This document shows, piece after piece, positions 151-13,053 of a stretch of 13,084 nucleotides of DNA. Numbering within the stretch: position 1 is the stretch's first letter; every line of letters starts with the position of its first letter. The notes beneath the pieces were generated by a model that was not told the origin of the DNA, searched no databases, and saw only the letters and a program-made list of their open reading frames with translations. The stretch lies in contig CALIAG010000387.1 in the NCBI GenBank assembly GCA_938041325.1, forward strand, positions 1 to 13,084, given 5' to 3'. The translations under genes and the position numbers were made by a program. Origin of the DNA: an uncultured Saprospiraceae bacterium. GTDB taxonomy: Bacteria > Bacteroidota > Bacteroidia > Chitinophagales > Saprospiraceae.

Positions 151-344
151 GTTCATTGATGATGGTTTATTTAATGTCCTAATAGACCAGGACGATTTAA
201 GAAGAGGGAATTTTAATAATTGTGAATTTGAATAGGCGCAATCATAAAAAAACGAACTGCCAACAAAACGTAAACGTAATGCGGAGTTTTGGGTTAAATC
301 CAAAGGTCTGTGTATATTTATTAAGTCACCAAACCTTATGCCCC

Positions 345-487
345 GACGCTTCGGGGTAGCTTTGGACAAGAAAAAATAAAACGAAACGATAAGCTTTAGC
401 TTTGTGCGCAGACCTGCCTCGCTGGTAGGCAGGCGGAAACGAAAAGTTTCCTTACTTCCGCACTAAGTTTAGCTCGAGCGTTGGGCA
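345..487 (+). repeat. Copy 1 of a ~143-bp structured intergenic repeat family; the core is a 3-stem module: closing helix, CCTGCCT..AGGCAGG hairpin, GGAAAC..GTTTCC hairpin
   Basis: About 85-90 percent identical to 4388-4530 in the same orientation (direct alignment of gacgcttcggggtagctttggacaag...gtgcgcagacctgcct...aggcaggcggaaacgaaaagtttcc...). Hairpins: CCCCGA/TCGGGG at 341-356, CCTGCCT/AGGCAGG at 414-433, GGAAAC/GTTTCC at 435-451, and a closing helix GTGCG(403-407)/CGCAC. It ends 47 nt before the ATG at 534. Confidence 0.75.
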
Positions 488-4387: not shown

Positions 4388-4530
4388 ACTTCGGAGTAGC
4401 TTTGGACAAAAAAAGAAAAAACAAAACAATAAGCCTTAGCTTCGTGCGCAGACCTGCCTTGCCGGCAGGCAGGCGGAAACAAAAAAGTTTCCTTGCCTCC
4501 ACACTGCGCTTAGCCGAACTGTTAGGTGAC
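4388..4530 (+). repeat. Copy 2 of the ~143-bp structured repeat family, same orientation as copy 1
   Basis: Aligns with 345-487. The near-perfect palindrome cctgccttgccggcaggcagg at 4453-4473 is followed by GGAAAC-aaaaaa-GTTTCC. The closing helix GCGCAG (4445-4450) / CTGCGC (4507-4512) is shifted by a few nt relative to copy 1. It ends 12 nt before the ATG at 4543. Confidence 0.75.
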
Positions 4531-5977: not shown

Positions 5978-7432
5978 ATGAACGGATTACTACTCACCGA
6001 TGGATATAAGACCGGACACCACCAGCAATACCCAAAAGGAACAGAAGAAGTATATTCTAACTGGACACCTAGAAGTAACAAATACGCACCAAAAGGCTGT
6101 GACAAAGTACTTTCCTTTGGACAACAATATGTGATGCAGTGGTTGCATGATTATTTTGAGGATAATTTCTTTTCAAAACCAAAAGCATCCGTTTGCGATG
6201 AAATAAAAACCGAATTATCATTATACCTTAATGCGGACTATGATGTGACACATTTCGAAGATTTGCATGACCTGGGTTATTTGCCCATTCGAGTGAAGTC
6301 TCTAGACGAAGGGGTCGAGGTTCCCATTCGCGTGCCGATGCTAACGGTAGTAAACACCGATCCTAAATTTTACTGGGTCACCAATTTTCTTGAAACTATA
6401 TTATCGACCATGTTGTGGTTGCCCATGACCTCGGCTTCCATTGCATTGACCTATAAACGTATTTTCAAAAGATGGGCCTTAAAAACAGATGCCGAAAATA
6501 TAGCTTTTATTGATTTTCAAGGGCACGATTTTTCAATGAGGGGCATGGGTGGTCTTCAAAGTGCAGTAGCTTCGGGCATGGGTCATGCGGCCGTATTTTT
6601 AGGATCCGATACGTTGCCGGTGATTCACGGACTTCGAAAGTATTATGAAGCGGAAGGCTTTGTAGTTGGATCTGTGAACGCTACCGAGCACTCCGTAATG
6701 TGTGCTGGCACCAAAGATGATGAAATAGGTACGTTTCGACAGTTGATGAAAACCTACCCCACGGGAATTTTATCTGTAGTGAGTGATACCTGGGATTTAT
6801 GGAAAGTGCTAACGGAGTACCTTCCAACATTAAAAGAAGAAGTATTGGCCCGCGATGGTAAACTGGTGATACGCCCCGATAGCGGTGACCCTGTTGATAT
6901 TATCTGTGGAACAAATACTCAAATGAGTAAGGGCACTCCGGTTGAAAAAGGAGTTGTCGAATTACTTTGGGATGTTTTTGGGGGAACAACGAACAAGGAG
7001 GGCTTTAAAGTATTAGACCCACATATTGGAGCTATTTATGGTGACAGTATCACCACAACACGTGCTGCGGATATTTGTCAACGATTGCATGACAAAGGTT
7101 TTGCCACAACCAATGTGGTATTGGGTATTGGTTCGTTTACCTATCAATTTAATACCAGGGATACCTTCGGGTTTGCTATGAAAGCTACTTCGGTAGTAGT
7201 TGACGGCGCGCGCAGGGAAATTTTCAAAGACCCTATTACAGATGACGGCGTAAAAAAATCTGCAAAAGGATTAATTCGGGTCGATAAAGTAGATGGCGAT
7301 TATGTGTTGGTTGATGAAGTAACGGAAGCAGAAGAACAAAATGGGGAATTAAAGGTGATTTTCGAAGACGGCAAGTTCGTACATAAAACCGCTATAGAAG
7401 AAATTAGGGCTCGAATAAACGAACGGGTTTAG
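5978..7432 (+). CDS. nadV: Nicotinamide phosphoribosyltransferase family protein (NadV/Nampt; possibly the Namat-type NAD-reconstitution enzyme), 484 aa
   Basis: The N-terminus LLLTDGYKTGHHQQYP and the overall length are typical of NadV/NAMPT. It is followed by a prs homolog as in nadV-prs operons. Confidence 0.9.
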   Translation: MNGLLLTDGYKTGHHQQYPKGTEEVYSNWTPRSNKYAPKGCDKVLSFGQQYVMQWLHDYFEDNFFSKPKASVCDEIKTELSLYLNADYDVTHFEDLHDLGYLPIRVKSLDEGVEVPIRVPMLTVVNTDPKFYWVTNFLETILSTMLWLPMTSASIALTYKRIFKRWALKTDAENIAFIDFQGHDFSMRGMGGLQSAVASGMGHAAVFLGSDTLPVIHGLRKYYEAEGFVVGSVNATEHSVMCAGTKDDEIGTFRQLMKTYPTGILSVVSDTWDLWKVLTEYLPTLKEEVLARDGKLVIRPDSGDPVDIICGTNTQMSKGTPVEKGVVELLWDVFGGTTNKEGFKVLDPHIGAIYGDSITTTRAADICQRLHDKGFATTNVVLGIGSFTYQFNTRDTFGFAMKATSVVVDGARREIFKDPITDDGVKKSAKGLIRVDKVDGDYVLVDEVTEAEEQNGELKVIFEDGKFVHKTAIEEIRARINERV

Positions 7433-10558: not shown

Positions 10559-10890
10559 TACTTAAAATTTGTGTCCGCCAGTCTGCTGACGGACGAACGG
10601 GTTAAACTATTATCATGTATTACTATTTATTTCATTTTTTAAAAACAGTAGGTGCATATCATCTTTCTGATACGGAAATACTGGTTTTTGATACTGCTTG
10701 CAATTCGTTTTGTAGCATGCTTCCAATTGTGTTATTGATAAAATATTCATCAATTCTCCAGAAAGAAGGATGACCAAAAAGGGTTTTGCCTTTCGCATCA
10801 AAAAATCACCATTTCAAAGTAGCTTCATGATTGTCTTTGCTTCCCTTAGGAAACAATTACCGATTTACAGCTACTGCTTTTTGTCATTTT

Positions 10891-10905
10891 AAGCCCAACG
10901 GGCTT
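10891..10905. other. Small perfect hairpin aagccc-aac-gggctt at the proximal edge of the tRNA region
   Basis: 6-bp stem seen directly. It is flanked by short T-runs on the plus strand, but there is no clear U-tract in the minus-strand (tRNA) direction. Confidence 0.3.
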
Positions 10906-10936
10906 GGAGATCAGTTTTAAAAGATGATCGGCTTTA

Positions 10937-10981
10937 GGCTACATTATGAGTGTAGTGCTCTACCAACTGAGCTAAAGGGCC
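10937..10981 (-). pseudogene. Orphan 5' fragment of a tRNA with anticodon CAT (Met/Ile2-type): acceptor, D-arm and anticodon arm only
   Basis: Minus strand reads GGCCCTT-TA-GCTC-AGTTGGTA-GAGC-A-CTACA-CTCATAA-TGTAG-CC, then continues TAAAGCCGATCATC with no T-arm. Confidence 0.7.
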
Positions 10982-10989
10982 TAAAAAAG

Positions 10990-11055
10990 TGGCCTCTTGC
11001 AGGAGTCGAACCTGCGCGTCCTTCTGTTGTTCTAACCTAACTGAACTACAATCCC
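10990..11055 (-). pseudogene. Chimeric/degenerate tRNA remnant: 5' acceptor and D-arm of one tRNA (GGGATTG...) joined to a T-arm/acceptor of another; the anticodon arm is missing
   Basis: Minus strand: GGGATTG-TA-GTTC-AGTTAGGTTA-GAAC-A, then ACAGAAGGACGC, then GCAGG-TTCGACT-CCTGC-AAGAGGCC-A. The 3' acceptor strand cannot pair with the 5' strand. Confidence 0.55.
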
Positions 11056-11061
11056 ATTTGG

Positions 11062-11087
11062 GACTGATGGGATTCGAACCCATGACT
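11062..11087 (-). pseudogene. Orphan tRNA 3' fragment (T-arm plus acceptor: ATGGG-TTCGAAT-CCCAT-CAGTCCC-A); possible att-site remnant
   Basis: A canonical T-loop GTTCGAATC with the 3' acceptor strand but no upstream cloverleaf. Its acceptor (CAGTCCC) would pair with the GGGATTG 5' fragment that follows 3 nt later, suggesting tandem copies that are each partly deleted. Confidence 0.55.
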
Positions 11088-11089
11088 CA

Positions 11090-11400
11090 CAGAGTGGTGA
11101 TTGTTTTTTGGAAAACAATCGAAACCATCAAGTCAAGTTGTACATGAAGACAGTATACCTCTCGGCAAAACTCCATACAATAGTGCCCTACAGAAACACC
11201 CAACAAGACCCGCTTGATATCTTTATTCCCGCAAAGGCGGGAATCTCTATTTTAATGAACTTTTGTAAAAGCCTCACAACACTCCTTGTTGTTATGAGGC
11301 ACTACCACAAACTATGTTTTCACAAGCTTGTTTTTAATTACATGACAAAACTGAAACAGTACTACGCAATTATTATGCGTAGTTAAAATTTCTTTTGTTT
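11090..11400. other. About 310-bp noncoding, hairpin-rich segment of unknown function between tRNA-Arg and the tRNA fragments
   Basis: Hairpins: gattgtttt-ccaa-aaaacaatc (11090-11112, 9-bp stem); ttcccgc-aaag-gcgggaa (11226-11243); cctcacaaca..tgttgttatgagg (11271-11300, bulged); actacgca-attattat-gcgtagt (11361-11383, 8-bp stem followed by tttcttttgttttt on the plus strand). The only ORF (11108-11386, plus strand) has no RBS and atypical composition. Confidence 0.4.
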
Positions 11401-11634: not shown

Positions 11635-11646
11635 ATTTTAGAGATT

Positions 11647-11795
11647 TTTTTGAAAGGTGTCGATTATTTTTCTACGTCCCTTTTTGCGCCCCACGTTGTT
11701 AAAATTTTCTAGCGTAGCTATGGCTATGCTGGAAAATTTTGCCTAGTTGCGCACCAAAAGTGAACTGTACAAATTCTAATCACACCTTTCAAAAC
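11647..11795. mobile_element. MITE-like ~150-bp element bounded by ~19-bp terminal inverted repeats (ttttgaaaggtgtcgatt ... aatcacacctttcaaaa), inserted between tRNA-His and tRNA-Gln
   Basis: Left arm 11647-11666 and right arm 11776-11795 are reverse complements (18/19 with a 1-nt indel). The interior is AT-rich with no ORF. It is the only large spacer in an otherwise tightly packed array. Confidence 0.45.
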
Positions 11796-11803
11796 AGTCT
11801 CTG

Positions 11804-11875: not shown

Positions 11876-11900
11876 ATTTGCAAGCCTAACAAGATTTGAA

Positions 11901-11920
11901 CCTGCCTGCCGGCAGGCAGG
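11901..11920. repeat. Perfect 20-bp palindrome CCTGCCTGCC/GGCAGGCAGG, the same hairpin as in repeat copies 1 and 2, sitting inside a 130-bp non-tRNA spacer (11881-12010)
   Basis: acctgcctgccggcaggcagg is near-identical to 4452-4473 and related to 413-433. The neighbouring hairpin ttattt-c-aaataa is at 11965-11977. Confidence 0.6.
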
Positions 11921-12031
11921 CTCATATCTCAGGGTTAGAAATGCTTTTCTGCATTCACGAACTCCTTATTTCAAATAAAATGAGCATGAGCTAAATCCTG
12001 CGTGCTATCCATTACACCATAAGCTTAATTG

Positions 12032-12148
12032 TACCCCACCCAAGATTCGAACTTGGACTTGAAGGATTTTAAGTCCAGAACTTCGTTCGGTGCCTTCGCA
12101 GAAACTGTGTTTCTGCTCGTCAATCTCTGCCAGTTGGGCTAGTGGGGC
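12032..12148 (-). ncRNA. 117-nt tRNA-like element: perfect tRNA 5' and 3' ends (7-bp acceptor, canonical T-arm) enclosing about 45 extra nt that form three hairpins; possibly an interrupted tRNA or a novel tRNA-like RNA
   Basis: Minus strand GCCCCAC-TA-GCCCAACTGGCAGAGATTGACGA-[GCAGAAAC-aca-GTTTCTGC]-GAAGGCA-[CCGAAC-gaa-GTTCtGG]-ACTTAAAATCCTTCAAGT-CCAAG-TTCGAAT-CTTGG-GTGGGGT-A. The acceptor is GCCCCAC/GTGGGGT. The segment CTGGA-CTTAAAA-TCCTT resembles a weak anticodon arm (TAA). Confidence 0.5.
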
Positions 12149-12153
12149 ATTTG

Positions 12154-12226
12154 TACAGGGAGAGAGATTCAAACTCTCAGAGTACTGGTTCTAAGCCAGC
12201 TGCGTTTGCCATTTCGCCATCCCTGC
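12154..12226 (-). tRNA. Noncanonical tRNA with Leu anticodon TAG but a class-I (short variable arm) structure and A73
   Basis: Minus strand GCAGGGA-TG-GCG-AAATGGCAAA-CGC-A-GCTGG-CTTAGAA-CCAGT-ACTCT-GAGAG-TTTGAAT-CTCTC-TCCCTGT-A. All stems pair. The variable region is 5 nt, whereas bacterial tRNA-Leu normally has a long variable arm. Confidence 0.65.
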
Positions 12227-12230
12227 ATTG

Positions 12231-12303
12231 CTGAGGCATTAGGATTCGAACCTAAAACTTCCGTGTTAACAGCACGGTACTCTACCTATTGAGTTATACC
12301 TCA
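12231..12303 (-). tRNA. tRNA-Asn (anticodon GTT), 73 nt, canonical
   Basis: Minus strand TGAGGTA-TA-ACTC-AATAGGTA-GAGT-A-CCGTG-CTGTTAA-CACGG-AAGTT-TTAGG-TTCGAAT-CCTAA-TGCCTCA-G. Confidence 0.9.
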
Positions 12304-12384: not shown

Positions 12385-12483
12385 GTCTGAGAAGCAAGAT
12401 TGACTTCGTCTTTCTTGCAACTACTCCTTGTTAATCAAATTCGAGTAAACTTGATTTGATTAAGTCGTCTGAGAAGCAAGATT
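12385..12483. repeat. 17-bp direct repeat gtctgagaagcaagatt (12385-12401 and 12467-12483); the second copy is the 3' end of tRNA-Pro, the first an orphan copy 82 bp away (att-like duplication)
   Basis: The exact 17-mer occurs twice. The spacer between them contains the inverted repeat aatcaaat...atttgatt (12434-12461). Confidence 0.65.
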
Positions 12484-12882: not shown

Positions 12883-13053
12883 AATTGCTTCAGCCGTGGG
12901 AGTCTCAATTTCCCAGACTGGCAGAGAACCTGCATGTGCGGTTATCCGCTAAAACCTTTATTCATATTTTAATTATTCGCCTGCCCGGCTCGGGCCAAGA
13001 GTGTGGCCAGCGCCCTTTGGCTTGCTCTTCCTTTTTTCAATAAATAATGCGCA

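Follow-up and report, generated by a model that had tools for sequence, protein, structure and literature searches.

The tRNA-Leu(UAA) gene of cyanobacteria and plastids carries a group I intron of ~200-300 nt, which lies between U34 and A35 and has a P1-P9 ribozyme core, and small palindromic or miniature elements (MITEs, Rickettsia palindromic elements) land in RNA genes. Long accessory tRNA arrays (L-arrays, e.g. the Anabaena trn operon) contain pseudogenes and show frequent insertions, duplications and deletions between relatives (PMC8421152). In archaea and eukaryotes, tRNA introns are spliced by proteins, with a bulge-helix-bulge motif at the junctions and ligation by RtcB (PMC4090602).

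We analyzed a stretch of 13,084 nt, here called the window, in which 11-12 ordinary minus-strand tRNA genes spaced 1-8 nt apart (ARAGORN, Rfam) surround a 117-nt element (12148..12032 on the minus strand) that lies 4-5 nt from both of its flanking tRNA genes. Like the L-arrays (PMC8421152), this is a set of accessory, horizontally distributed and closely spaced tRNA genes, with inactivated members and a content that varies between relatives. It differs from them in lying downstream of an RtcB-PrfH operon in Flavobacteriaceae and in its lesion, which is a clean hairpin-forming insert of 43 nt net rather than point decay. On the minus strand the element reads GCCCCAC-TA-GCCCAACTGGCAGAG-[ATTGACGAGCAGAAACACAGTTTCTGCGAAGGCACCGAACGAAGTTCT]-GGACTTAAAATCCTT-CAAGT-CCAAGTTCGAATCTTGG-GTGGGGT-A, and its features are listed here by window position.

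12032..12148, minus strand: interrupted tRNA-Leu(UAA) gene, full 117 nt (sequence, alignment to intact orthologues, ARAGORN)
12125..12148, minus strand: 5' part, 24 nt, comprising the acceptor 5' strand GCCCCAC, UA, the D-stem 5' strand GCC and the D loop CAACTGGCAGAG (exact 24-mer in relatives)
12077..12124, minus strand: insert ATTGACGAGCAGAAACACAGTTTCTGCGAAGGCACCGAACGAAGTTCT, 48 nt replacing native GCAAA, net +43 (gap in all other arrays)
12100-12124 and 12075-12092, minus strand: alternative reading of the insert as 25 nt + 18 nt, with native GC-G-AAGG between them (alignment)
12098..12116, minus strand: perfect 8-bp hairpin GCAGAAAC-ACA-GTTTCTGC inside the insert (sequence; both free and constrained folds)
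12075..12090, minus strand: second small hairpin CCGAAC-GAA-GTTC(T)GG, which overlaps the anticodon-stem remnant by its last two G (sequence, constrained fold)
12062..12075, minus strand: anticodon-arm remnant GGA-CTTAAAA-TCCTT, with the anticodon TAA at 12069-12071 (identical to orthologues, in which the full stem is AAGGA/TCCTT)
12040..12056, minus strand: intact T arm CCAAG-TTCGAAT-CTTGG (sequence; the T-stem pairs covary in the orthologue family)
12032..12039, minus strand: acceptor 3' strand GTGGGGT and discriminator A, CCA not encoded (sequence, alignment)

A sequence-only reading of this DNA had described perfect tRNA termini around an interior of hairpins, and each of these parts is indeed present on the minus strand: the acceptor GCCCCAC/GTGGGGT, the discriminator A, the UA (at positions 8-9) and the T arm at the ends, and the 8-bp hairpin, CCGAAC-GAA-GTTC(T)GG and GGA-CTTAAAA-TCC within. 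The 7-bp acceptor, discriminator base and T arm with a GTTCRANYC loop are those of a canonical bacterial tRNA; a contiguous D arm, a 5-bp/7-nt anticodon arm and a length of ~73-93 nt are missing. ARAGORN in default mode did not call the 117-nt element and neither did Rfam at its gathering score (the tRNA model reached 18.8 bits over the 3' part only, vs. a gathering score of 29); ARAGORN returned tRNA-Leu(taa) only in intron mode or once the insert was removed. The same reading had likened the central stretch to the anticodon arm of tRNA-Sec, and this resemblance proved superficial: the stretch is the 3' two-thirds of a Leu(UAA) anticodon arm. What the element has in common with tRNA-Sec and allo-tRNA is a chance GGA-CTT.AAA-TCC match and an unusual length, whereas its acceptor/T helices are 7/5 rather than 8/5 or 9/4, it has no long variable arm (its variable region is CAAGT, 5 nt) and its anticodon is UAA, not UCA. 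We rejected tRNA-Sec/allo-tRNA on these helices, this variable region and this anticodon, together with the plain 75-nt orthologues, and the suggested new noncanonical (allo-tRNA-like) fold fails on the same points and on an insert that is conserved nowhere. A group I intron-containing tRNA was likewise rejected: the same isoacceptor is interrupted, and in a bacterium, but the insert of 43-48 nt has the wrong size and the wrong position (the D-stem/anticodon-stem junction), and no Rfam intron or ribozyme family matches it at E <= 10.

In each of 11 bacterial loci with a related array (L002-L006, L015, L025-L028 and L030) we found an intact tRNA-Leu(taa), which has a called length of 75-77 nt, the sequence GCCCCACTAGCCCAACTGGCAGAGGCAAAGGACTTAAAATCCTT(C/A)AAGTCCAAGTTCGAATCTTG(G/A)GTGGGGTA or a covarying variant of it and the anticodon arm AAGGA-CTTAAAA-TCCTT. 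In the arrays that were aligned, this gene occupies the identical slot, after tRNA-Leu(UAG) and before tRNA-Arg(UCU/UCG), and the window element shares the slot, the neighbours and the tRNA body. At both ends, over 24 nt on the 5' side and 45 nt on the 3' side, its copy is identical to those of L004 and L025, an agreement far beyond chance, and 43 extra alignment columns are found in the window copy alone. The insert is thus delimited in position and extent, absent from every orthologue recovered and flanked by perfectly conserved sequence, which is a structural lesion not seen in the orthologues. Of the several possibilities raised by the sequence-only reading, this outcome bears out a tRNA carrying a small inserted element, with a lineage-specific interior, and the homologous-locus comparison that it had proposed as a check counts against the exotic readings.

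Across the orthologue family, 99.3% of cells are paired, compensatory changes occur in 9 of the 20 pairs and no shuffle is as good (0/500), a combination which argues that the family is a genuine tRNA under structural selection. Bacterial tRNA-Leu usually has a long variable arm; tRNA-Leu(UAG) (window 12153-12226, minus strand) and the tRNA-Leu(UAA) orthologues are 74-75 nt long with a 5-nt variable loop, a class-I shape. The exact 5' 24-mer of the element occurs in six genome contigs (Zobellia uliginosa, Maribacter, Cellulophaga, Spongiimicrobium, a Flavobacteriaceae and a Saprospiraceae), in one marine metagenome contig and in one phage contig, and with <=3 mismatches also in L025-L028; a metagenome scan with the 24-mer yielded one new array plus the phage contig already known. 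In that phage contig, L001, the 24-mer belongs to a tRNA. A search of the phage collection found no close match to the window, and the proteins of the window are bacterial-looking (ankyrin, AraC, PEBP, NrtR-NadV-Prs, LOG, slipin). The closest locus found is that of Zobellia uliginosa, with which the window is collinear at 90-98% identity and which does not have the Leu insert; by this collinearity the window appears to be part of the chromosome of a marine, Zobellia-like flavobacterium. Because the closest locus is without it and the flanks are without decay, the insertion appears to be recent.

The insert can be described in three ways that all fit the sequence: 48 nt in place of GCAAA; two insertions of 25 and 18 nt; or 31 nt inserted plus 14 nt in place of AA. 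Removing it under any of the three gives an ARAGORN tRNA-Leu(taa) call. In the two-insertion reading the native GC-A-AAGG is kept as GC-G-AAGG, with A26 to G the sole changed native nucleotide; the native 7-mer with one mismatch (GCGAAGG) also turns up in 11% of shuffled inserts, and the one-insertion and two-insertion readings are inseparable and equally good. The change is located where the D stem, position 26 and the anticodon stem meet, and the D-stem 3' strand and the anticodon-stem 5' strand are deleted, displaced or split in every reading.

As to where the insert came from, a short-word blastn search of the window and ~100 kb of related loci returned only the self-match and no second copy. 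The sequence-only reading had proposed looking for further copies of the 19-nt hairpin; none was found in the window or in the viral collection (0 matches), and within the window the 8-bp hairpin stays unique at <=3 mismatches (0.01 matches expected by chance). A 17-mer of the insert gave six unrelated matches in the viral collection, several of them in apparently coding sequence, and the plasmid and phage collections gave only chance-level matches. We found no terminal inverted repeats and no flanking or target-site duplication for the insert, no significant similarity to the ~52-nt insert family of neighbouring genes (p >= 0.06), no ribozyme or intron family in the element (Rfam, E <= 10) and, when looking for a promoter or terminator created by the insert, a weak consensus match on the opposite strand only. 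The insert resembles MITEs and Rickettsia palindromic elements in being short, hairpin-forming and placed in a structured RNA gene; it differs from them in that the window, the ~100 kb of related loci and the viral, plasmid and phage collections show neither multiple copies nor inverted repeats nor a duplication.

Taken as a whole, the comparison makes it likely that in this element we see the tRNA-Leu(UAA) gene of a dispensable accessory array of a Zobellia-like flavobacterium, recently interrupted, and that it is a young pseudogene whose product is neither charged nor used in decoding. The event took place at the DNA level, either as 48 nt replacing GCAAA or as the insertion of two hairpin-forming pieces (25 and 18 nt). 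With only 4-5 nt to the flanking tRNA genes, the interrupted gene would still be co-transcribed with them. RNase P relies on the acceptor/T-arm module to recognize its substrates, and because the acceptor stem and T arm, used by RNase P and in 3' processing, are intact, the 5' and 3' ends of the transcript may still be matured. Because the D-stem 3' strand and the anticodon-stem 5' strand are displaced or split, the D/T elbow of the L-shape and a normal 5-bp/7-nt anticodon arm would not form, and a product with neither an L-shape nor a normal anticodon helix would most likely not be aminoacylated and not be used by the ribosome. Interruptions affect other array members in other lineages as well, and a tRNA-Ser(UGA) that was interrupted earlier is much diverged in its 3' half, as would be expected if interruption kills the gene. 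What looked like an exotic 117-nt tRNA-like RNA would then be an accessory tRNA gene that was disrupted not long ago; this is in itself an ordinary finding, and the context of the locus is more useful than the element.

We considered whether the 117-nt RNA could itself be functional, as an expanded decoding tRNA or as a tRNA-like decoy or regulator in an RNA-repair locus, and regard this as improbable. The structure prediction that the sequence-only reading had called for speaks in its favour: the 117-mer is more stable than its shuffles (z = -2.83; 0/200 shuffles as good), and enforcing the intact acceptor and T arm gives a cloverleaf-compatible fold with extra arms at -38.5 kcal/mol, 0.9 kcal/mol higher than the unconstrained MFE of -39.4 kcal/mol, so that some tRNA-like RNA could be made from the element. 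A YrlA-like tRNA mimic is also present in the same locus. The constrained fold has an additional arm, formed by the 8-bp hairpin, and a GAAGG/CCUUC stem within which lie the CCGAAC/GUUC-GG hairpin and an unpaired CUUAAAA; the predicted structure is tRNA-like at its ends and its anticodon arm is not normal. Known tRNA geometry does not accommodate a split D stem or a hairpin that bulges from the anticodon stem. Against a function there is also the insert, which is not conserved in any of the 11 orthologous bacterial loci and appears very recent, with flanks that have undergone no adaptive or compensatory change; the suggestion of a tRNA-derived regulatory RNA accordingly found no support in a sequence conserved nowhere.

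The surroundings of the array bear on a further alternative. In relatives, the array lies between a gene cluster (RtcB, a PrfH-like protein of 230-239 aa with an RF-1 domain, and a ~180-aa protein) and a slipin gene, with the RtcB-PrfH genes upstream of the array in L025 (1-2092), L026, L027, L028 (1-1657) and L005 (677-3421). The long PrfH form corresponds to the "PrfH-CT" subfamily of Flavobacteriia (PMC11741408), a paper in which we found no mention of a linkage between a tRNA array and RtcB-PrfH. The window ends at a terminator just upstream of the array, and we therefore infer its own RtcB-PrfH linkage by synteny. In L033-L035 the 182-aa gene of the cluster adjoins slipin and the tRNAs are absent, and in L032 two tRNAs are left; by this comparison the array is dispensable, accessory and variable between relatives.

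With an RtcB gene and a PrfH-like RF-1-domain gene directly upstream of the array in L005 and L025-L028, the insert might be intron-like, with an endonuclease cutting the precursor and RtcB rejoining the halves into a functional 74-nt tRNA-Leu(UAA), an explanation that we hold to be very improbable. In its favour, excision under the two-insertion reading leaves an intact tRNA, and the neighbouring tRNA-Arg(UCU) carries a clean ~54-nt insertion 5' of its anticodon loop, with a homologous insert at the same place in the independent array L015. As in protein-spliced introns (PMC4090602), the intervening sequence is short, such sequences sometimes occupy non-canonical positions, and an RtcB-type ligase gene is nearby in relatives; the differences from such introns are that the host here is a bacterium, the insert is not conserved, predicted folds show no bulge-helix-bulge motif at the junctions by eye, and the loci examined show no splicing endonuclease gene. 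These differences, and the absence of an Rfam intron or ribozyme match at E <= 10, speak against splicing, as do the uniqueness of the Leu insert and the retention of GCGAAGG at a level that is not significant given its frequency in shuffled inserts. The ~52-nt family is found in both orientations relative to transcription, which fits targeting at the DNA level rather than a signal in the RNA; in other arrays, 5-6 tRNA nucleotides are lost at several hairpin inserts, which therefore cannot be spliced back; and the 3' half of the interrupted tRNA-Ser(UGA) is much diverged in three arrays. Extended to the locus as a whole, the idea would be that the hairpin inserts of RtcB-PrfH-linked arrays are tolerated through RNA cleavage and RtcB ligation, a protein-dependent tRNA splicing in a bacterium, or, in a weaker version, that interrupted tRNAs serve the neighbouring RNA-repair system as substrates or sensors; we give this conjecture very little credence indeed. 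If the inserts were spliced after all, which is unlikely, a new bacterial RNA-processing pathway would be at hand.

An artefact of assembly or amplification, with an intact tRNA in the real genome, would agree with the orphan nature of the inserted sequence, and is extremely unlikely given that the insert repeats no nearby sequence in inverted or direct form, as amplification chimeras usually do, that small insertions of a comparable kind are present in other, independently assembled arrays (genome assemblies, ENA, Logan), and that three further lineage-specific insertions lie within 400 nt.

Relative to Zobellia uliginosa, the window has about four new insertions in ~400 nt of array and none in the adjacent 2 kb that was aligned (P ~0.013 under uniform placement), and other arrays carry insertion sets of their own. 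In Flavobacteriaceae, a variable tRNA array sits between an RtcB-PrfH ribosome-repair operon and slipin, beside a Y-RNA-like tRNA mimic, and this array collects small insertions at recurrent tRNA positions.

The gene next to the element, tRNA-Arg(UCU) (window 11881-12026, minus strand), is interrupted twice, by inserts at 11940-11993 and 11901-11920. The first (~54 nt) lies on the 5' side of the anticodon loop (TAGCTCAT...TTCGTGAATGC-loop-GCATT); the second is a perfect 20-nt palindrome, CCTGCCTGCCGGCAGGCAGG, between the T stem and the T loop, and this palindrome is dispersed. At the anticodon-loop position of the first insert, Arg(UCU) in L015 and Arg(UCG) in L005 have homologous inserts of ~50-55 nt, and members of the family are found in the opposite orientation in the T loops of Cys in L003 and Gln in L005. 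As we read the junctions, the DNA target of these inserts resembles GGWTT^TCKAAC, a T-loop sequence, and this likeness would suggest that they are a small DNA element with specificity for tRNA loops. In the viral collection, the conserved end of the ~52-nt family occurred at eight loci, in unrelated contexts and with no tRNA genes. If the inserts are target-specific mobile DNA, the arrays would be a natural trap for elements recognizing tRNA-loop sequences.

A different kind of insert was observed in L003 (Maribacter), where five T loops have the 5 nt after GGTTC swapped for a 16-nt hairpin YCCCGR-N4-YCGGGR, and two D loops are likewise replaced; the hairpin sites include 6360, 6450, 6851, 7042-7055, 7097, 7217 and 7508 of L003 and 3868 of L027. 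Outside the arrays, the 16-nt hairpin occurs once (window 341-356) in ~113 kb. GC-rich palindromes like the array inserts are present outside the array at window 341-356 (CCCCGACGCTTCGGGG) and 4453-4473 (CCTGCCTTGCCGGCAGGCAGG).

Insertions are also present between genes. At window 11640-11802, between tRNA-Gln and tRNA-His, there is a MITE-like insertion of 163 nt, whose terminal inverted repeats are 21 nt long (AGAGATTTTTTTGAAAGGTGT / ACACCTTTCAAAACAGTCTCT) and which is not present in any of the other arrays. In the window (12385-12483, minus strand), tRNA-Pro and tRNA-Glu are separated by a 65-nt insert that is also found in L002 and L030 (3470-3575). A perfect 17-nt direct repeat of the T-loop-to-3'-end segment of tRNA-Pro (AATCTTGCTTCTCAGAC) flanks this insert, which looks like a scar left by integrase-type insertion into the T loop. 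The tRNA-Ser(UGA) remnant (window 12888-13032, minus strand) has its anticodon loop interrupted after CTCTTG by GCCCGAGCCGGGCAGGCGAATAA... and carries another insert in its T loop. The window shares the anticodon-loop insert with L005, L025/26 and L028, and L003, L004, L015 and L027 do not have it; in the window, L005 and L025 the 3' half of this gene is much diverged, and its acceptor halves appear by eye to be non-complementary.

On the slipin side, a match to the YrlA tRNA-like module (RF02553) lies at window 11021-11094 on the minus strand (34.9 bits vs. a gathering score of 69; E = 1e-5), in the order T arm, stem, D arm, within a noncoding stretch that is ~79-90% identical in L002-L005. 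It is followed at 10929-10981 (minus strand) by the 5' two-thirds of a tRNA-Met(CAU)-like sequence (acceptor 5' strand, D arm and anticodon arm) and then, up to the slipin gene, by conserved non-tRNA sequence (10559-10928); from the tRNA-Met-like piece to slipin no Rfam family was found at its gathering score. Near the tRNA-Met-like site, L004 and L006 hold ~1.1 kb of extra, apparently noncoding sequence with tRNA-like pieces. Downstream of slipin, relatives have variable defence-type genes (SIR2+Piwi, AbiEii, SMODS/E2 CBASS, Macro, Tpt1). Within the array, one slot (window 12230-12303, minus strand) holds tRNA-Asn(GTT) in the window and L002 and tRNA-Lys(TTT) in L004-L006, L015 and L025-L027; since the gene body is nearly identical, this is a single-base anticodon switch.
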